Virus record (IMG/VR): IMGVR_UViG_2925939204_000001 | Strand: one strand, 5' to 3' | Source: a virus | Taxonomy: Duplodnaviria; Heunggongvirae; Uroviricota; Caudoviricetes | Length of the DNA stretch: 64,000 nucleotides | Shown: positions 9,354-52,956 of the stretch, piece by piece | Numbering within the stretch: position 1 is the stretch's first letter | Layout of the letters: every line of letters starts with the position of its first letter | Translations under genes and position numbers: made by a program | Notes under the pieces: model-generated | Databases searched by the model: none | The model's input: the letters and a program-made list of their open reading frames with translations, nothing else | What the model was told of the DNA's origin: nothing

Positions 9354-10259
9354 ATGAGATCAGTCGCTTTCAAAAATATCTTCATCTATCGTCTTTCACG
9401 CGAAGTTAGCTGGGATACTGCAGAAGTAAATGCAGCCCTTAGCAAGTTTGTGTTTACCCCATGCGGTTCTCAGGATATGGCTAAAGCTGGTTGGACCTCC
9501 GTTCTTGGTGACAACCTCACCCATGAATACCAGGGTTTTCTTCTGATACAGCATAAACGAGAGGAAAAAATCCTACCTTCTCAAGTGCTCAAAGAAGAGT
9601 TACAGAAAAAAATCCTGACACTTGAAGAAGAGCAAGACAGAAAGCTGAAGAAGACCGAAAAAGATTCGCTGAAGGATGAAGTGCTTCACTCTCTTCTTCC
9701 TCGTGCTTTCACGAGAAAATCACTCGCCAAAATCCTGATCGACCGCAGCAACCATCTGGTATTCGTTGAGGCAAGCAGCGCCAAAAAGGCAGAGGACCAG
9801 CTGGCTTTATTGCGAAAATCGCTCGGCAGCCTGCCTGTCATTCCATTCACACCACGCGAACCGCTGGAAATTACAATGACCGAGTGGTTTAAAAACGGCT
9901 TCCCTGCCGGATTTACAGCAGGTGAAGACGCCACATTAAAGGGTCTGCTCGATAATGGTGGTGCCGTTCGCTGCAACAAAGTTGATCTACAGTCCGACGA
10001 GATTATGTCTCACATTGAGGCGGGGAAAGTAGCTACGACCGTTGCAATTAACTGGATGGACCGCGCGTCGTTCAGAGTCAACGATGATATGAGTATCAAA
10101 GCCCTGACATTCTGTGATGATCTCTATGACCAGAACGACGATATCGACCGGGAGGATGTAGCACAACGATTTGATGCTGATTTCGTGCTCTTTACGGGCG
10201 AATTATCTGCACTGTTTAACGCGCTGGTGGAGGCCATTGGCGGTGAAGCAGAACGTTAA
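9354..10259 (+). CDS. rdgC: recombination-associated protein RdgC homologue (P1 HrdC-like)
   Basis: Near colinear similarity to E. coli RdgC as recalled ([34 protein letters not shown], [15 protein letters not shown]). Confidence 0.85.
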
Positions 10260-12399
10260 CCTTCGATATGGTTCAGTTTGCAGTGGAATTGAAGCCGCGA
10301 GCATTGCCTGGGAACCGTTGGGTATGCGTCCGGCGTGGTTTGCTGAAATTGAGCCTTTTCCATCTGCCGTTCTTGCGCACCGCTGGCCTCATATCGCCAA
10401 CCTTGGCGATATGACAAAACTTGCCAAAAAAGTCCTGGCTGGGGAAATCGAATCCCCTGATGTGCTCGTCGGGGGAACACCTTGTCAGGCATTCAGTATC
10501 GCGGGATTACGTGGTGGGCTTGATGATGAGCGCGGCGCGCTAACTTTGAAGTATGTGGAGCTTGCAAATGCAATTGACGACAAACGGTCTGAGTCCTTCC
10601 TCAAACCGACAGTTATCGTCTGGGAAAATGTCCCAGGAGTCCTGTCATCGGCAGATAACGCCTTCGGATGTTTCCTTGCCGGATTGGCTGGAGAAGATGC
10701 ACCATTTGAACCAGGTGATCGACCTGAATCAGGAAAAAGTAACGCGTTCTGGCGGTGGGATGGCAAAACCGGTTGCCATGCTCCAAAGTGGCCGCAGTGT
10801 GGTTGTATTTATGGACCGCAGCGAAAGGTGGCCTGGAGAATACTTGATGCCCAATACTTCGGAGTGGCACAACGACGCCGACGCGTGTTTGTTGTCGCAA
10901 GTGCTCGAACAGACCTCGATCCCGCAACGGTACTTTTTGAGTTCGAAGGCGTGCGCCGGGATATTGCGCCGAGCAGAGGCGAGGGGAAGGAAGTTGCCGG
11001 AAATGTTGGAAATGGCATTAAAAGCGGGAGCCATTGGGATAACCCTGTAAATCCTCACCCGACACTTGCCCGATCGCACAATACCGGCGGGACGGGTGCA
11101 AGCAACCAGGAGATTTTTTCACAGCGCGGAAGTGGGCTTGTCGGTGCTTACCGGATGGTAGCATTTGGTGAGTATGCGGATGATGAGGCGGCTTCCACGG
11201 TCAAGGCCAGAGATTTTAAGGATGCAACCGACCTGGCTGTTTTTGACAGTGCGAACGTCGGAGTGGCAGTACGTCGCTTAACGCCTGTCGAGTGCGAACG
11301 CCTGCAGGGCTTTCCTGACGGGCACACGTTGATCCCTACGGAAAAGCGTAAAAAAGTTTCTTCAGATGAACTGGCATACCTTCGCAATCACTATCCAGAT
11401 TTAAGCGAAGAAGAGGCCGCGATGCTTGCAGCTGACGGACCGCGTTACAAAGCGATCGGCAACAGCATGGCAGTTCCTGTTATGCAATGGATAGGGTGTC
11501 GCATTCTTGCGACCGTAGCGGATAAACAGCAAAAAACAATAAATACCATTACCTACACAAGAAAACTCCGGACTCCGGATGAATATGAACGCCCAATATT
11601 CAAATGGGTAGGCGGTAAATTCTCAGAGTTGCCTACAGTGCTTGAGCATCTACCACACGGCAAGCGGTTAATAGAACCATTCGTTGGTGGCGGTTCCGTA
11701 TTTACGAATGCAGGATTTCGCCACAACCTGCTTAATGATATTAACGGTGACCTGATTAACTTCTATCAGACATTGCAGCGAGAGGGACATTCGCTCGTCA
11801 CGCTGGCATATAGTTTTTTCAAAAATTACAACAACGCTGACGCTTACCTCGAAGTGCGCGAGGCATTTAACAGAGGAAAGTATGACCAGCTACATCATGC
11901 TGCCGCCTTTTTGTACCTTAATCGGCACTGTTTTAATGGCGTAACGCGGTACAACCAAAATGGCGAGTTCAACGTGGGGTATGGCAAATACAAAGCGCCC
12001 TACTTCCCACATGCAGAGATGGAGGCATTTTTGGCTGATGACGTACTCAAAAACACGTCCTTTGTATCAGGTGACTTTGCTGGCGTCATCGAGGCGGCTG
12101 GTGAAGGCGATGTGATTTTTTGCGATCCGCCGTATGAACCGCTGCCGGATACAGAAGGGTTTACCAGTTATTCAGGAAATAGCTTCCGTTTCGACGAACA
12201 GAAACGGCTGGTATCTCTATTGGTGGAAGCCCACCAGCGCGGCGCTAAGGTAGTGATAACAAATAGTGGTGCGCCAAACATCCGTGAACTATATGAACGA
12301 AACGGGTTTAAAGTACATCATATGGCAGCCAGACGGTCGGTGTCCTGCAAGGCGTCAACACGTGTAGTTGCTAACGATATAATTGCAATAATGAAGTAA
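10243..12399 (+). CDS. bifunctional DNA methyltransferase: N-terminal C5-cytosine MTase fused to C-terminal Dam-type N6-adenine MTase (P1 Dmt-like)
   Basis: C5 motifs [30 protein letters not shown]; Dam motifs KWVGGK and DPPY; GTG at 10243 after GGAGG is the likely start (ORF opens at 10171). Confidence 0.85.
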
Positions 12400-12447: not shown

Positions 12448-14109
12448 TTAACCTAACTTCGCCCAGGTATCACGCAGCCCAACGGTGCGGTTAAATACCG
12501 GTTTTTCCGCCGTAGAATGGCGGCTGTCGAGGCAGAAATAACCTTCACGCTCAAACTGGAATGCTTTACCCGCTACCGCTTCTTTCAGCGACGGTTCAGC
12601 AAAACCCTGTTTGATCACCAGCGATTCCGGGTTAATCACCGACAGGAAATCATCCGCAGCACCTGGGTTCGGCACGCTGAACAGACGATCGTACAGGCGG
12701 ATTTCAACCGGCAGCGCATGTGCCGCGCTCACCCAGTGAATAACGCCTTTCACTTTACGACCATCTGCCGGATCTTTGCTTAAGGTGTCGGCGTCATAAG
12801 TACAGAAGATGGTGGTGATATTGCCTTCGGCATCTTTCTCCACGCGTTCAGCCTTAATGACGTAAGCATTACGCAGACGCACTTCTTTACCCAGCACCAG
12901 ACGTTTGTACTGCTTGTTAGCTTCTTCGCGGAAATCGGCGCGGTCGATCCAAATCTCACCGCTAAACGGCACCTGACGGCTACCCATTTCCGGTTTGTTT
13001 GGATGGTTCGGCATGGTGACCATTTCGCCTTCGCCCTGGTAGTTTTCGATAACCAGTTTCACCGGATCGATAACCGCCATTGCGCGCGGCGCATTTTCGT
13101 TGAGATCTTCACGGATGCAGGATTCCAGCGACGCCATCTCAATGGTGTTGTCCTGCTTGGTCACGCCGATGCGTTTGCAGAACTCACGAATAGAAGCCGC
13201 AGTGTAACCACGACGACGCAGACCGGAAATGGTCGGCATACGCGGGTCATCCCAGCCTTCAACGTGCTTGTCGGTCACCAGCAGGTTCAGCTTACGCTTG
13301 GACATCACAGTGTATTCCAGATTCAGGCGCGAAAATTCGTACTGGCGCGGGTGAACAGGAATGGTGATGTTGTCCAGTACCCAGTCATACAGACGACGGT
13401 TGTCCTGGAACTCAAGCGTACACAGAGAGTGCGTAATACCTTCCAGCGCATCGCTGATGCAGTGGGTGAAGTCGTACATCGGGTAGATGCACCACTTGTT
13501 GCCAGTCTGGTGATGTTCAGCAAACTTAATGCGGTACAGCACCGGGTCGCGCATCACGATAAACGGCGAAGCCATGTCGATTTTCGCACGCAGGCAGGCT
13601 TTACCTTCTTCAAAACCACCGGCACGCATTTTTTCGAACAGCGCCAGGTTCTCTTCAACGCTGCGGTCGCGGTACGGGCTGTTTTTACCCGGCTGCGTCA
13701 GGGTGCCGCGGTATTCGCGGATCTGTTCCGGCGTCAGTTCGTCAACATACGCCAGGCCTTTGTTGATCAGTTCAACAGCATAGGCATGGAGTTTGTCAAA
13801 ATAATCGGAGGAGTAACGGATGTTGCCAGACCAGTGAAAACCTAACCATTCAACGTCGTTTTTAATCGACTCGACGTACTCGATATCTTCTTTTACCGGG
13901 TTAGTGTCGTCGAAACGCAGGTTGCACTGGCCTTTATAGTCCTGGGCGATCCCGAAGTTCAGGCAGATAGATTTCGCATGACCAATATGCAGATAGCCAT
14001 TCGGTTCCGGCGGGAAACGGGTATGTACTGTGGTGTGCTTACCACTGGCCAGATCTTCATCGATGATCTGACGAATAAAGTTAGTCGGGCGGGCTTCTGC
14101 CTCACTCAT
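12448..14109 (-). CDS. glnS: glutaminyl-tRNA synthetase
   Basis: Full-length 553-aa product nearly identical to enterobacterial GlnRS as recalled; HIGH motif ([12 protein letters not shown]) and KMSKS-like VMSKR. Confidence 0.95.
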
Positions 14110-14261
14110 TGTGGATTCCTCAAAGCGTAAACAACGTATAACAGCGTATGATCTTATAAGCCGAATAGGCTGACAACCACTAGTTGATTAGAAATTACTT
14201 TCTATCGTTATTTCAATAATGAGCTTTTTCATGAAGCCCACTTTTGCGCATAAGTAAATTA

Positions 14262-14340
14262 ATGACAAATGGTACACAATTGGAACCAAAAAGGATGTAA
14301 AGGTGCACCAAATTAGTGGTGTATTGGTGCACCTTTGGTT
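14262..14340. repeat. cluster of degenerate TGGTGCACCA-like palindromic half-sites including a perfect 13-bp inverted repeat; candidate centromere/operator
   Basis: aaaggtgcaccaa-N12-ttggtgcaccttt at 14299-14337; tggtacaca, ttggaacca, tggttcaag nearby. Confidence 0.4.
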
Positions 14341-14377
14341 CAAGACTTTTTAAGTTCTAAAACCAACCTGAAAGACT

Positions 14378-14665
14378 TTATTTTGCTTCCTCAGACTCCG
14401 CTAACATGAGGATAGCATGGCGGATCATATTCAATTTGCTGCGATTATGCTTTTTGCTCAACGCATCAAGTACCTGGTACTCGTATTCATTGAAACCAAC
14501 ACGAATAGATTTAAAATCACGTGGAGCGTCCTTATCGAGCACTTTGTTGTCTTCTGGTTGCTCACCCGGCACCAAATCAGCCTTACTTGCAAAATCCTCA
14601 ATTCGGCGTTCAAGATCGGGGTCTTTTACTTCGGGGGCTTTTACCGATTTACGAGGCTTAATCAC
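14378..14665 (-). CDS. ParG-like ribbon-helix-helix partition/centromere-binding protein
   Basis: Small protein directly downstream of and overlapping the ParA-like gene; C-terminal RHH-like SIRVGFNEYEYQVLDALSKKHNRSKLNMIRHAILML. Confidence 0.6.
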   Translation of the reverse strand: MIKPRKSVKAPEVKDPDLERRIEDFASKADLVPGEQPEDNKVLDKDAPRDFKSIRVGFNEYEYQVLDALSKKHNRSKLNMIRHAILMLAESEEAK

Positions 14666-15299
14666 TTAATAACTCCTTAACCAACATCTGGATTTCACCT
14701 TTAGCTTTCCCGTTGTCCATCTCAACAACGCCCTTCCCTTCAGCCATGCAATCGCGGTAAACCTTACGATCACGAATGATGGTTTTCAGCAACTTCAGTT
14801 GCGGATATTCAGCCAGGTACTCTTTGGCCTCATTGGTTTCATTCACAACCGGATTGGATGGGGCCATTGTTAAGACTGCGAACGCCTTAATGCTAGGATT
14901 AGGCATCAGGTCCAAAGCCTCTTCAAACACTTCAACAAAGTGTGCCAGCGTGTCTAAATCTGGTTGAGATGGTCTGAATGGGACCAACACAATATCTGCA
15001 GCGGTTATGCCTGTACGCATCTCTTTGCTATCGCGCCCGGCTGTATCAACAACAACAAATTCATAACGCTTATCCAGATCGAGAAGTGTTTCTCGAATAT
15101 TACCAAACTTCTGGACACAATGAATTACAGGAGAAACCTCTGCCGTGTTACGGTCAGCTGCCCAGCGGGCAGCTGTTCCTTGCTTGTCTGCATCTAGTAA
15201 CACTACATCCTTATTTGCGCGGGCAAGCTCCGCACAGATGTTTACGCTTGTGGTTGATTTTCCACAGCCACCTTTTTGGCTGACTACCAATATAATCAT
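14658..15299 (-). CDS. parA: ParA/ParF-type partition ATPase (small type Ib Walker ATPase)
   Basis: Deviant Walker A KGGCGKST; ATG at 15299 with GAGGAA RBS (ORF track opens at 15329). Confidence 0.85.
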   Translation of the reverse strand: MIILVVSQKGGCGKSTTSVNICAELARANKDVVLLDADKQGTAARWAADRNTAEVSPVIHCVQKFGNIRETLLDLDKRYEFVVVDTAGRDSKEMRTGITAADIVLVPFRPSQPDLDTLAHFVEVFEEALDLMPNPSIKAFAVLTMAPSNPVVNETNEAKEYLAEYPQLKLLKTIIRDRKVYRDCMAEGKGVVEMDNGKAKGEIQMLVKELLSD

Positions 15300-15460
15300 A
15301 TCCGTTCCTCGGTGTGATTTTGGTATCAAAACGGTTCCAGATAAGAGCCTTTTTGATGCGGGACAGGCTCTATAATGGAGTCATGAATGTTTGGCAAAGT
15401 ATAACATCAATCAGACCAAATACACCTTATATTGCATCCTATTTAACACGAAATCAGCCC

Positions 15461-15512
15461 TAAATTGGAACCAGATACAAAATTGCACCATAACAGCACC
15501 TAAATGGTGCCA
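15461..15512. repeat. three tandem AAATTGGAACCA-like repeats upstream of the ParA-like gene; candidate centromere/operator
   Basis: taaattggaacca, aaaattgcacca, taaatggtgcca at about 18-bp spacing. Confidence 0.4.
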
Positions 15513-15586
15513 GTTCAACACTAATTAGACACCATTAAGGCACAAAAAGGGCTGCAATTTGCAGCCTTAAACCAGCACATCTTCTG

Positions 15587-15931
15587 TCAATCAGGTAGAG
15601 AGTCAGCCAGATTGCGCGCCGACGCGCTTTTGGCAACAACTTGCTCCTTCACTGGCTCAATGGAGGCAGGGCGCTCCTCAACCGCAGCTGGTAGTTCCAG
15701 GAAGGATGCCAGCATTTTTCGGATCAGCTCCGGGTTATTGTCTTCGGTCAGCAGGGAAGCCAGTAATCCTGGAAGCCTGCTATCGACTTCTCCCAGCGCA
15801 AGCCCTGCCAACAATGCAGTTCTTGCCATATCGCTATGTTTTTTTATCTTCTCGCTCGCCGCCTTTTCATTGGCATAAGCCTCTGGGCGAAGATAAATCA
15901 TCACTTTCTTACGTTCCTGAGACATGGACAT
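15587..15931 (-). CDS. parR: ParR/StbB-like centromere-binding protein of a type II partition system
   Basis: Directly downstream of parM; ALLAGLAL motif region resembles R1 ParR. Confidence 0.7.
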   Translation of the reverse strand: MSMSQERKKVMIYLRPEAYANEKAASEKIKKHSDMARTALLAGLALGEVDSRLPGLLASLLTEDNNPELIRKMLASFLELPAAVEERPASIEPVKEQVVAKSASARNLADSLPD

Positions 15932-15937
15932 ACCTCG

Positions 15938-16894
15938 TTAACCGATTGCTTTCAGGCCATGAACAAGAGCAAGTTGCGGGTCATCCGCCACGAAGAAACG
16001 GTCATCACGAATATTAACTTGCTCGCGAATTGCATCTGCCACCAGCGGTGCGCCACCACCGATCACCATGACATGCGTATATCCTTTAAAGTCGCCAATC
16101 ACATCAAGAACGCGGGTACGCAGACGGTCAATGCTTGCGGCAATGGCCTTTTTCACATCACCAATCGCTGATGGGTCATTGATATTGTCGTTCAGATAAT
16201 CTTCATCGTGGCGGTTAATAATGAGCTGATCAACATTGTAATTTGACGTTTCGGTATTGGCTCTGGCAAGTGCTTGCCTTACTTCCCTGGTAACCAGAGA
16301 GACGCCAAGATTCGAATCGCCAAAAACACGGGAAACTGCCGTCATTTGCCCGGCGACCATTGAAACATCAAGGGTAGTTCCACCCAAATCGACGATAAGA
16401 ATAGAATGGGCAGGGTTCAGATTGTCGCACAGGCCAATTCCTGCCGGAATAGACTCCGGTCGTACCGTAACTTTCTTAATCGTGAACACATTGCCTTTAT
16501 TCAGCGTGACGGGGCGCATAAGGCTGGCTTTCTTGCGCTCGATGTTATCGAGATTGTATTGCGCGTCGTCGTCGTAAAACTCCGCCAGAGGCAGCGTGAC
16601 CACAATTTCTACTTCCTGCGGCTCAATGCCACTTGTCAGCAGGGCATGGTGAACAGCCAGGACGTTAAGCGGGCTGTATTGCCATTCCACGTTATTCGTC
16701 GGCAGAACATCTGGCGAGATCAAATCATACGAATACTTTTCGTCGTCAATGACATAGTTAAACGGCTTGCCAGCACCAAATGTTGCTGACCATCCGCGCT
16801 TAAAGCTGTTAGGGCTGATGTGAGTGCGAGTTTCCCCGTCGTGCTCCCACAGCATTTTGATATTGGTTGAACCATCATCGATAAAAATGCGCAT
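15938..16894 (-). CDS. parM: ParM/StbA actin-like partition ATPase
   Basis: Strong similarity to R1 StbA as recalled (FIDDGSTNIK, ISPNSFKR, VDLGGTTLD, HVMVIGGGA); start at MRIFIDDG. Confidence 0.9.
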   Translation of the reverse strand: MRIFIDDGSTNIKMLWEHDGETRTHISPNSFKRGWSATFGAGKPFNYVIDDEKYSYDLISPDVLPTNNVEWQYSPLNVLAVHHALLTSGIEPQEVEIVVTLPLAEFYDDDAQYNLDNIERKKASLMRPVTLNKGNVFTIKKVTVRPESIPAGIGLCDNLNPAHSILIVDLGGTTLDVSMVAGQMTAVSRVFGDSNLGVSLVTREVRQALARANTETSNYNVDQLIINRHDEDYLNDNINDPSAIGDVKKAIAASIDRLRTRVLDVIGDFKGYTHVMVIGGGAPLVADAIREQVNIRDDRFFVADDPQLALVHGLKAIG

Positions 16895-16920
16895 CTTCTT
16901 GCTCCACTTCTGAGACACAT

Positions 16921-17074
16921 TTGAGAATCAAAATGTAATTTTAAAAGAGAAGCACCCAAAAATCCACACCAAACGAGATAAAGAAGAGCGATTGTTGAGT
17001 TTATTTTGAGAATATCTTGATCACCCACCGAATGATGGTCTGACAGTGAGATTTATTTGAGAACGAATTGAGAA
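16921..17074. repeat. candidate parC-like centromere: five copies of TTGAG(A/T)(A/T) upstream of parM
   Basis: TTGAGAA at 16921, 17006, 17057, 17068 and TTGAGTT at 16994. Confidence 0.4.
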
Positions 17075-17160
17075 TGCAAAAATATTCCGAAATTTAACTC
17101 TCCGTTTGAATGACGAAATAACAAAGTGATGACAATAGGAGGATAACCAGGAGGTGAAGA

Positions 17161-17445
17161 ATGAGCGCAATAGCCACCAGCGACACCCTTTGTTCTGGTC
17201 ACGGAGGATTTCCGCCGCGACTGGTAGCTGAAACCGTTCCCTGGTTCACCGTTAACGGTAAGCCAGTTGTTGTAGATGGTGCCATGTTTCCCAGTCACAC
17301 TGACGGTAACAGTGCACATCCAGGGGCAGCTGTATCGACGCGAGTATGGTTTTCGATAGGTGGAAAGGGAGTTGTCTGTGTAGGCGATCCGCTTTCTTGT
17401 GGTTCTGTTATCGCCAACGGCGAGGATATTTTTCAGGTTGCATAA
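17161..17445 (+). CDS. PAAR-domain spike-tip protein
   Basis: About 94 aa with CSGHGGFP and INGKP-like repeats typical of PAAR; strong RBS AGGAGG. Confidence 0.6.
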   Translation: MSAIATSDTLCSGHGGFPPRLVAETVPWFTVNGKPVVVDGAMFPSHTDGNSAHPGAAVSTRVWFSIGGKGVVCVGDPLSCGSVIANGEDIFQVA

Positions 17446-19031: not shown

Positions 19032-19060
19032 TTGATCTTCCATGTTTTCAGGCTTATATT
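19032..19060 (+). promoter_or_regulatory. sigma70-type promoter of immunity module 1 (TTGATC, 17-bp spacer, TATATT)
   Basis: Hexamers and spacing read directly; identical promoter at 52682-52710. Confidence 0.55.
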
Positions 19061-19139
19061 CACGCCGTTGCAGCAAATTCTGCGACCGGGTTTAGCAGCC
19101 TGAATGTACATGCGGACAACCGCAGATATCCGATATTGC

Positions 19140-19258
19140 GGTATTTTTGTGTCCGTAAAACCATGTTACGCCCGAATTATGGTGGGGCGTGATGGGGAGG
19201 CTTCGGCCTGCTGGTTTCATGTACGCCAGTCTGCTAACCCCGTCACGTCCTGCCACCC
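19140..19258 (+). ncRNA. c4: c4-like antisense regulatory RNA of an immI-like operon (module 1)
   Basis: RNA elements b' (catgtac, 19218-19224) and a' (ctgctaac, 19231-19238) are complementary to a1/b1 (19090-19112) and to a2/b2 (19259-19296) overlapping the icd RBS, as in the P1 c4 system. Confidence 0.55.
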
Positions 19259-19307
19259 GTTTAGCAGCGGGTAGCAGGTTGTTAAACCTGTACATGAGGC
19301 CGTAACT

Positions 19308-52681: not shown

Positions 52682-52710
52682 TTGATCTTCCATGTTTTCA
52701 GGCTTATATT
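52682..52710 (+). promoter_or_regulatory. sigma70-type promoter of immunity module 2 (TTGATC, 17-bp spacer, TATATT)
   Basis: Identical to the module 1 promoter. Confidence 0.55.
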
Positions 52711-52789
52711 CATGCCGTCGTAGCAAATTCTGCGACCAGGTTTGACAGCCTGAATGTTAGTGCGGACAACCGCAGATTTCCGATATTGC

Positions 52790-52907
52790 GGTATTTTTGT
52801 GTCCGTAAACCGCGTTACGCCCGAATTATGGTGGGGCGTGATGGGGAGGCTTCGGCCTGCTGGTTTCACTAACGCCAGTCTGTCAACCCTGTCACGTCCT
52901 GCCACCT
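52790..52907 (+). ncRNA. c4: c4-like antisense regulatory RNA, module 2, with altered specificity
   Basis: b' cactaac (52867-52873) and a' ctgtcaac (52880-52887) complementary to a1/b1 (52740-52762) and a2/b2 (52908-52945); compensatory changes relative to module 1. Confidence 0.55.
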
Positions 52908-52956
52908 GTTTGACAGCGGGTAGCAGGTTGTTAAACCTGTTAGTGAGGCCGTAACT

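Follow-up and report, generated by a model that had tools for sequence, protein, structure and literature searches.

Known partition systems and phage-plasmid D6

The classic example of a studied double partition locus is that of the E. coli virulence plasmid pB171, in which par1 encodes ParM and ParR, par2 encodes ParA and ParB, and parC1 and parC2 complete the locus. Its operons are reportedly divergent, share parC1 and show regulatory cross-talk. The parC region of plasmid R1 is built from two blocks of five units, and phage D6 is known as a plasmid prophage. Among plasmids in which a partition system is recognisable, about 19% have two or more, and the combination of a type I system with a ribbon-helix-helix (RHH) ParB and a type II system, there termed previously reported, was found in 971 PLSDB accessions (PMC13245405). 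For pESBL, EMSA revealed binding of ParB to arrays of the GATAACAA octamer, and the locus stabilised mini-F (PMC7602700).

In the D6 record (MF356679), orf58 is annotated as StbA, orf59 as StbB, orf60 as 'possible ParA' and orf61 as hypothetical; the record has no annotation of repeats or centromeres, and the D6 genome has no further annotated partition genes. Later on, D6 was listed in a table only with 'ParA-Ib-type ATPase; RHH domain-containing protein' (PMC8026635), and elsewhere cop, parA, stbB and parM were taken together as a single partition system (PMC6799933). D6-like phage-plasmids occur widely, though at low frequency, among clinical E. coli, Shigella and Salmonella, and standard plasmid-typing tools overlook them (bioRxiv 10.1101/2025.09.12.675607). 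No experimental work on either D6 partition system was found in the literature covered, to which the original D6 genome paper did not belong.

A tandem partition locus in a D6-like phage-plasmid

The stretch of DNA analysed here (the window, 64 kb in length) was identified as a D6-like phage-plasmid and is matched by an E. coli plasmid at 100% identity; phage D6 carries the same locus as orf58 to orf61, with 98.2% identity. Annotation and domain matches place a type II and a type Ib system next to each other on this single replicon, and on the minus strand the order is parC iterons, parM, parR, terminator, upstream iteron array, parA, the gene for a 95-aa RHH protein and downstream iteron array. 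Most probably (about 0.85), the locus is the plasmid-maintenance region of a D6-like phage-plasmid prophage and is made up of two segregation cassettes, each complete and independent of the other, in a head-to-tail arrangement. A first-pass annotation of the window had proposed a type Ib ParA plus RHH pair beside a co-oriented ParM/ParR pair, now assigned to the R1/pB171 type, each with repeats of its own, and domain, structure and repeat evidence bear this out. The present analysis established what the genes are, their fold, their intactness and the selection on them, together with the architecture of the repeats and the distribution of the locus, as described below. Rfam and tRNA scans gave no matches within the locus.

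The type II cassette

The type II cassette comprises the following features, each given with its basis.

15938..16894, minus strand: parM (stbA), actin-like segregation ATPase, 318 aa (Pfam, R1 ParM match, dN/dS)
15587..15925, minus strand: parR (stbB), predicted centromere-binding adaptor, 112 aa (Pfam, pB171 ParR match)
16904..17075, minus strand: parC-like putative centromere and promoter region (TTGAGAA copies, lag-11 autocorrelation, allele conservation)
17064-17075, 17052-17063, 17041-17051, 16999-17012, 16988-16998, 16969-16980, 16916-16927 and 16904-16915, minus strand: TCTCA-core direct iterons, 11-bp phased (unit mapping)
15541..15566, minus strand: intrinsic terminator ending the parMR operon, GGCTGCAAATTGCAGCC then CTTTTTGTG (terminator scan)

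ParM was matched by the Pfam families StbA_N (1.8e-69) and ParM_N (3.7e-55) and aligned over its full length, from residue 1, with the R1 ParM structures in the PDB (4a62 and 1mwk) at about 1e-111, with the nucleotide-binding segments FIDDGSTNIK, DLGGTTLD and VIGGGA kept between the two proteins. The start codon of parM is the ATG at 16894 and not the GTG upstream at 16918, and the gene has a dN/dS of 0.02–0.04. ParR was recognised by Pfam Plasmid_stab_B (3.5e-11), and its residues 4–76 matched the N-terminal domain of pB171 ParR (2jd3) at 1.1e-6; the gene starts 13 nt past the parM stop codon.

The TTGAGAA repeats that had been proposed for positions 16921–17074 were recovered as four exact copies at 16921, 17006, 17057 and 17068, all on the plus strand, and degenerate copies at 16910, 16995 and 17046 lie 11 bp from exact ones in a common 11-bp register. 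Of 12 copies in the whole window, four fall within this 154-bp array, with about 0.03 expected by a Poisson estimate; the count over the whole window is not above chance, and the excess lies in the clustering alone. Read as iterons with a TCTCA core, about eight units are recognisable on both sides of the putative parM promoter, and the autocorrelation of the array at lag 11 is 0.43. The units are kept in divergent alleles, one of which (L008) has one additional 11-bp unit. The putative promoter, which was read by eye, lies inside the iterons and consists of TGGATT (16961–16966), a 17-nt spacer and TAAAAT (16938–16943); a consensus promoter scan called neither this promoter nor the one proposed for parA. 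The terminator behind parR is kept in every allele read.

In such an arrangement, ParR dimers would coat the TCTCA iterons of parC and, because these iterons also surround the parM promoter, would auto-repress it. Filaments of ParM, capped by ParR/parC complexes, would then drive sister copies apart. The two operons are separated by a terminator. Protein–DNA binding and auto-regulation are thus inferred here, and likewise for the second cassette.

The type I cassette and its small partner protein

The two genes of the type I cassette are as follows.

14658..15299, minus strand: parA, small Walker-type (type Ib) partition ATPase, 213 aa (NCBIfam, ParF match, dN/dS)
14378..14665, minus strand: gene for a small putative centromere-binding protein (ParG/ParB-like), 95 aa (homologue families, AlphaFold, Foldseek)

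ParA belongs to the size class of about 200–220 aa that is devoid of an N-terminal DNA-binding domain, and it carries the deviant Walker A motif KGGCGKST at residues 9–16. It was matched by NCBIfam ParA_partition at 1e-47 with 162 bits, short of the curated threshold of 180 bits, and its residues 3–211 aligned with full-length TP228 ParF (4dzz) at 1e-18. The dN/dS of parA is 0.03–0.05.

The 95-aa gene has a GTG start that overlaps the end of parA and stands 7 nt after an AAGGAG site. Searches of Pfam, NCBIfam and PDB sequences with its product gave no direct match, and a word-indexed homologue search returned close relatives only; a HMMER search identified 101 distant homologues. Homologues are carried by plasmids from Enterobacterales, Aeromonas, Moraxella and Acinetobacter, and most of these are annotated as hypothetical. 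In the homologue alignment, N59 is invariant and R5, F25, A29, E62, L66, R75 and R82 are nearly so, with Arg5 kept in at least 90% of 55 homologues. Family matches among these 55 were to NikA-like proteins (22/55) and RHH_1 (15/55), and the profile of the protein aligned weakly with CopG-family chains (E 0.2–0.9). An AlphaFold model (pLDDT 87.5) has an unstructured N-terminal tail, and this basic tail, which contains the conserved Arg5, is followed by a single helix, then a linker and, at the C-terminus, the RHH domain. The best Foldseek matches of the model were CopG (TM 0.82, rmsd 1.2 A), Arc, TacA and ParG, with probabilities of up to 0.99 and E-values that are weak (0.4 or above) because the RHH domain is short. 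By its predicted fold and its protein family, and not by direct sequence match, the partner is an RHH protein.

The RHH protein would bind GGTGC-type iterons cooperatively on both sides of the operon, and the upstream array may double as the operator of the parA promoter. The conserved Arg5 in a tail modelled as unstructured suggests a candidate for arginine-finger-like stimulation of the ParA ATPase; the basic tail would stimulate nucleoid-bound ParA-ATP, and this stimulation would space plasmid copies over the nucleoid.

Repeat arrays of the type I cassette

Type I arrays flank the parA operon on both sides.

15398-15539, minus strand: upstream putative centromere/operator array of type I, about 12 units phased 11 bp (unit mapping, autocorrelation, weight matrix)
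14261-14373, minus strand: downstream putative centromere array of type I, about 10 units phased 11 bp (inverted repeat, units, autocorrelation, weight matrix)

The first-pass annotation had placed GGTGCACC-like palindromes at 14262–14340 and 15461–15512. The former region indeed holds the only two exact copies of GGTGCACC in 64 kb (at 14302 and 14326), while the latter has just GCACC/GGTGC-type half sites; both arrays are real but longer than had been claimed. With one mismatch allowed, the count of GGTGCACC over the whole window is not above chance and again only the clustering exceeds it. The repeats of the locus are best regarded as iterons with 11-bp phasing that form three arrays; the core is TCTCA in the type II array and GGTGC-like in the two of type I.

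Upstream units combine an A/T-rich part with a GGTGC-like part, such as ATTTAGGTGCT and GTTATGGTGCA, and at the end of the array stands an extended -10 box, TGTTATACT (15398–15406, read by eye). The autocorrelation at lag 11 is 0.42 upstream and 0.43 downstream; all three arrays of the locus peak there at 0.40–0.43, compared with 0.26–0.28 in shuffles, and have a second peak at lag 22. An initial weight matrix, for which a single relative supplied ten units, recovered the upstream array and detected the downstream array weakly. A broader matrix, built from relatives only, recovered both: the two densest 150-nt segments of the 64 kb are those at 15388, with 9 hits, and at 14262, with 5, against a window-wide mean of 0.57 (sd 0.87); the type I units are degenerate, and one enrichment pattern was defined after inspection of the arrays. 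A type I unit near the parM promoter was considered as a sign of pB171-like cross-talk and rejected, as it is a single GGTGC-type unit and not above chance.

The two exact GGTGCACC copies form the arms of a perfect 13-nt inverted pair (14299–14311 and 14324–14336), which is probably a single inverted iteron pair and may instead, or besides, act as a terminator hairpin. It is possible, though the odds are against it, that the segment 14299–14336 is not a centromere element but just an intrinsic terminator, which ends the parA operon and insulates glnS, and that the upstream array alone is the type I centromere. As RNA, the segment folds at -24.8 kcal/mol (z-score -3.8), a level that none of 200 shuffles reached, and the T-rich tract ACATCCTTTTT follows the stem; however, a loop of 12 nt and a main T run that lies 6 nt past the stem are atypical for a terminator, and a terminator scan of the minus strand did not call it. 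The stem is kept in one relative (L006) by three two-sided compensatory changes and one G-U pair in an alignment read by eye, but the arms are iteron-like in both alleles (TTGGTGCACC and TTGAYGCC) and inverted binding sites would therefore show like co-variation. Furthermore, in relatives without glnS the hairpin is absent and the end is formed by the dmt terminator, yet these relatives keep 9–10 downstream units, and in the window the hairpin is embedded in an 11-bp-phased array that reaches about 40 nt beyond it on each side. The downstream arrays of the glnS-less relatives are unalignable with that of the window, with the unit type unchanged. A putative type I centromere with arrays on both flanks is the preferred reading.

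In the relatives compared, the type of binding protein and the type of repeat go together. Serratia pELP1.10 has a small protein of the same family and 11-bp-phased GCACC/GCATC units on both sides; in Agarilytica pSU3, whose ParA is 66% identical, the small protein is a different one and each flank carries TTACTCA units. At the level of alleles, one relative (L007) carries a small-protein allele like that of the window beside a downstream array like that of L005, which has the divergent allele; over the 200 nt read, the two arrays are identical except for one base outside the units. As these arrays are alike despite different protein alleles, array–protein specificity is not deducible from these alleles.

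Intactness, distribution and exchange of the cassettes

In the window, parM, parR, parA and the 95-aa gene are all intact. The first-pass annotation had named inactivating mutations in one of the operons as what would speak against two active systems; they were sought in both and none was present. All four genes have a dN/dS of 0.02–0.26 at a synonymous divergence of up to saturation, indicating strong purifying selection, and they occur together in about 117 D6-like plasmids (ParA with at least 80% identity in 117, ParM in 118 and the small protein with at least 60% identity in 117).

Mosaic assembly had been suggested before and is supported by the discordant divergence of relatives. Relative L008 is close to the window in parMR (dS 0.09) and divergent in parA and its partner (dS 1.17), and L010 has the reverse pattern, with a dS of 2.0 for parM and 0.36 for parA. 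In the nearest relatives outside the D6 group, each cassette occurs singly. A recombination breakpoint among the relatives was located at about 15525, so that the upstream type I array moves with parA. From these comparisons, the cassettes would have been joined in the D6 lineage and later exchanged independently between relatives. A further-reaching and tentative proposal, rather doubtful as a whole, is that the 95-aa protein represents an undescribed RHH family of centromere-binding proteins, for which neither Pfam nor NCBIfam has a model and which reads 11-bp-phased GGTGC-type units on both flanks, and that the tandem locus evolves by independent cassette swapping, which would let prophages evade mutual partition incompatibility with one system always working.

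It is unlikely that one cassette alone partitions the element and the other is a dispensable passenger or has a different use, such as host-range flexibility, evasion of partition incompatibility with co-resident plasmids or the exclusion of competitors. There are parallels for this, as SCP1 has two apparently functional systems of which only one mattered for stability in the laboratory (PMC13245405), and pESBL remained stable after deletion of par (PMC7602700). However, purifying selection is equally strong on both cassettes, and practically every one of the about 117 relatives carries the two together. Frameshifts were found in parM of L005 and in parA of L011; they are single-base changes in short runs, with several indels across both genes in L011, and may be assembly errors, and they were set aside as evidence of dispensability. 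A contribution of both systems to stability is what we infer.

It is very unlikely that one of the cassettes serves the lytic cycle, for example by positioning replicating phage DNA, and not plasmid inheritance. The double locus is surrounded by virion genes, and by analogy only, another role was suggested for partition-like genes in phages without a known plasmid state (PMC7969092). However, each cassette is laid out entirely as in plasmids, including a putative self-regulated promoter embedded in iterons, and their nearest relatives are found on ordinary plasmids; D6 itself is a plasmid prophage.

For D6-like phage-plasmids, the tandem of type II and type Ib systems is the sole recognisable partition equipment. 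The arrays, as defined putative centromeres, can be targeted directly in experiments on stability, incompatibility and curing, and the cassette-swapped alleles form a natural series for studies of partition specificity.

Comparison with known partition systems

The type II cassette resembles ParMRC of R1 in the full-length ParM alignment, in the order parC, parM, parR and in a putative promoter flanked on either side by direct iterons with 11-bp phasing. It differs in its parC, where the recognisable units lie in three clusters, and in its ParR, which among solved structures is nearest to the pB171 type.

The type I cassette compares with ParF/ParG of TP228 and with the IncI systems (pESBL, R805a). 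Its ParA is likewise small, matches ParF over the full length and is 45% identical to that of the IncI plasmid R805a, and as in these type Ib systems the partner is small, translationally coupled and equipped with a flexible N-terminal tail and an RHH domain. ParG of TP228 resembles the 95-aa protein at the level of the fold only, and a profile comparison with IncI ParB was negative (hhalign probability 0.2), so that the 95-aa protein and IncI ParB are not one sequence family. Repeat arrays on both flanks of the type I operon are shared with pESBL, and R805a has parA-parB flanked on either side by tandem octamers of TTGTTATC, which is the complement of GATAACAA; in contrast to these tandem IncI octamers, the window has 11-bp-phased units with GGTGC-like cores.

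The double locus of pB171 has the same two system types side by side and, as in the window, repeat arrays up- and downstream of the type I operon (PMC7602700; PMC4270457), and its solved ParR domain is matched by the window ParR. The operons of the window differ in being tandem and co-oriented: both are encoded by the minus strand, a terminator stands between them, and they have no shared central parC1. The first-pass annotation had called two systems on one replicon unusual; with the exact combination in 971 PLSDB accessions, the precedent of pB171 and D6 genes that had been annotated before, this impression of rarity had to be corrected, and no new mechanism is revealed by the locus. The double locus is real and conserved, but the arrangement is common and has been described before.

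The partition locus and its carriers

The stretch between 14100 and 17200 of the window is matched over its full length by phage D6 (MF356679, 56834-59934; 98.2% identity), a P1-related plasmid prophage of Escherichia, and by the E. coli plasmid NZ_CP020051 at 100% identity. Matching plasmid records number 131, nearly all of them ~90-kb non-mobilizable replicons of Escherichia, Salmonella and Shigella, and high-identity matches to ParA, to ParM and to the small partner protein occur in about 117 plasmids for each. In the D6 record, the depositors labelled orf58 StbA type and orf59 StbB type; orf60 is noted as "possible ParA partitioning function", and orf61 was left hypothetical. Across the D6 genome, no further partition genes are annotated, and ~11 kb separate the partition locus from orf42, the putative plasmid replication gene, which is surrounded by tail genes. 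The following features were delineated:

16894..15938, minus strand: parM, 318 aa, both Pfam ParM domains
15925..15587, minus strand: parR, matching Plasmid_stab_B and the pB171 ParR N-terminal domain of solved structure
15566..15541, minus strand: intrinsic terminator 3' of parR
15539..15398, minus strand: upstream type I array, with an extended -10 box TGTTATACT at its end
15299..14658, minus strand: parA, 213 aa, carrying KGGCGKST
14665..14378, minus strand: gene of the 95-aa partner, GTG start 7 nt after AAGGAG, overlapping the end of parA
14373..14261, minus strand: downstream type I array, units phased at 11 bp
12448-14109, minus strand: glutaminyl-tRNA synthetase gene (glnS), full-length (TIGR00440, 1067 bits)

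The type II cassette

R1 ParM aligns end to end with the ParM of the window (~1e-111), with the nucleotide-binding segments kept, and the start of parM was therefore set at the ATG at 16894. The TTGAGAA repeats that the first-pass annotation had seen at 16921-17074 were recovered as four exact copies (16921, 17006, 17057 and 17068, all on the plus strand), one third of the 12 copies in the 64 kb, together with degenerate copies at 16910, 16995 and 17046, which lie 11 bp off exact ones in a common 11-bp register. Read in the direction of parM, the units are direct with a TCTCA core, sit upstream of, beside and downstream of the putative promoter TGGATT-17-TAAAAT, and are retained in divergent alleles. 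In the relative L008 (NZ_LT906557), the parC region from parM to the PAAR gene measures 277 nt versus 266 nt, and the extra length is one duplicated 11-bp unit TCTCAAATGTG beside the parM start, so that the iteron count differs by exactly one. The gene at the far end of this region (17161-17445, plus strand) encodes a PAAR-motif protein homologous to P1 upfC; as it is divergent from parM, its promoter must also sit in the 266-bp parC region.

The type I cassette and its repeat arrays

The best match of the parA product is the NCBIfam ParA partition model, at 162 bits under the 180-bit cut-off; TP228 ParF aligns with it over the full length, and ParA of the IncI plasmid R805a is 45% identical. 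Family and PDB sequence searches gave no direct match for the 95-aa partner, and an exhaustive HMMER search collected 101 distant homologues. Their alignment displays a basic N-terminal tail, in which Arg5 is kept in at least 90% of homologues, and an IExFAxxAD helix, then a linker that varies and a C-terminal block that is conserved; family matches among them were NikA-like (22/55) or RHH_1 (15/55). In the AlphaFold model (pLDDT 87.5), two helices come after an extended segment, and the top structural matches are TacA, CopG, Arc and ParG (CopG: TM 0.82, rmsd 1.2 A). Homologues, alignment, model and structural matches together place the partner in a predicted ribbon-helix-helix fold. Thus, family, ParF, R1 ParM, pB171 ParR and fold matches bear out the labels of type Ib ParA with a ribbon-helix-helix partner and of R1-type ParM/ParR.

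In the reading direction of parA, each type I flank holds about 10-12 A/T-rich plus GGTGC-like units in 11-bp phase, and autocorrelation of all three arrays, type II and both type I, peaks sharply at lag 11 and again at lag 22. When the 64 kb were scanned with a weight matrix derived solely from relatives (32 units), the two densest 150-nt segments were at 15388 (nine hits) and 14262 (five hits), at a mean of 0.57 and an sd of 0.87. Exact GGTGCACC has just two occurrences in the window, spaced by 24 bp, which together make up a perfect 13-nt inverted repeat. Of the palindromes proposed earlier, those within 14262-14340 stand as this one inverted pair, and 15461-15512 holds half sites only.

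Folded as RNA, the inverted pair (14299-14336) gives a hairpin of -24.8 kcal/mol (z-score -3.8), and the relative L006 preserves the stem by three two-sided changes plus one G-U pair in an alignment read by eye. Both points would suit a terminator. The arms are iteron-like in the window and L006 alleles alike, so the pair may be a terminator hairpin, inverted binding sites, or both; a role as terminator only, and not as centromere, is rather unlikely.

Related arrays were compared in other plasmids. Serratia plasmid pELP1.10, with ParA and a small protein of the partner's family, carries GCACC/GCATC units spaced by 11 bp on either flank; Agarilytica plasmid pSU3, whose ParA is 66% identical to that of the window and whose small protein is different, carries TTACTCA units on both flanks; and R805a has tandem octamers on both flanks. 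These equal the GATAACAA octamers of the IncI plasmid pESBL, for which ParB binding was shown and whose locus stabilised mini-F (PMC7602700). Across these plasmids, it is thus the binding protein and not the ATPase that the repeat type follows. These comparisons, together with the downstream arrays of relatives that lack glnS, support an assignment of the flanking arrays to the type I system. In the relatives L007 (NZ_AP027678) and L005 (NZ_CP115379), the downstream arrays are identical along the 200 nt that were read except for one base, which lies outside the units, and their small binding proteins are clearly different alleles (78% identity, counted from the two translations); the downstream array is therefore exchangeable apart from the protein.

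Intactness and mosaicism

No stop codon, frameshift or motif loss was found in the four partition genes of the window, and hence none of the inactivating mutations that the first-pass annotation had named as an argument against two working systems. Comparing the window with four divergent relatives wherever dS was measurable, dN/dS was 0.02-0.04 for parM, 0.07-0.26 for parR, 0.03-0.05 for parA and 0.07-0.13 for the small protein, with synonymous divergence saturating in some window-relative pairs. Single-base deletions in short runs break parM in L005, and parA and the start of parM in L011 (NZ_CP031917); these frameshifts may be errors of assembly or a true decay of one cassette.

The proposed mosaic assembly gained support. 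L008 has window-like parM/parR (dS 0.09) and a divergent parA (dS 1.17), and the relative L010 shows the opposite (parM dS 2.0, parA dS 0.36). Megablast matches of one class of relatives start at about 15525, with the terminator on one side and the upstream array on the other, and the closest non-D6 relatives carry either cassette alone.

Neighbouring genes

Directly after the downstream array follows glnS, present in the window, D6, L006 and L008 and absent from L005, L007, L009 and L010, where the array adjoins the methylase terminator. Megablast cannot align the downstream arrays of relatives without glnS to that of the window; these still hold nine to ten units of the type I kind in 11-bp phase. 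Over the first ~10 bases of glnS and the ~90 bases before its start, identity to chromosomal enterobacterial glnS is 88-95%, suggesting that the gene was captured from the chromosome of a host.

A single ORF of 742 aa (10171-12399, plus strand) combines C5 cytosine and D12 adenine methylase domains; in D6, the annotation splits this region into two ORFs, orf64 and orf63. P1-type C4 antisense RNA with an a1/b1 target element (Rfam RF01695, RF03163) occurs in two separate copies (19054-19260 and 52704-52909, plus strand), a sign of two immunity (icd/antirepressor) modules, in agreement with how D6 is annotated.

Comparison with known double systems

Plasmid pB171 is the studied example of a type I system with ribbon-helix-helix ParB paired with a type II system. 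Its operons are reportedly divergent with parC1 common to both, whereas those of the window are in tandem with a terminator between them, and a scan with the relatives-only matrix gave no significant sign of sites common to both. One GGTGC-type unit TTTTGGGTGCT (16951-16961, minus strand, matrix score 8.2) lies in the spacer beside the predicted -35 hexamer TGGATT of parM; it is not above chance, but could hint that the type I binding protein exerts cross-regulation of the pB171 kind.

The first-pass annotation had called two systems on one replicon unusual, which is incorrect: in a 2026 survey, ~19% of plasmids with any partition system had more than one, and type I with ribbon-helix-helix ParB plus type II was found in 971 accessions and termed previously reported (PMC13245405). 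Literature on D6-like elements mentions the genes and not the arrays, and describes one system or just the type Ib pair (PMC6799933; PMC8026635). The locus is an uncharacterised member of a well-known double-partition kind, and the original observation of two adjacent systems is confirmed and refined.
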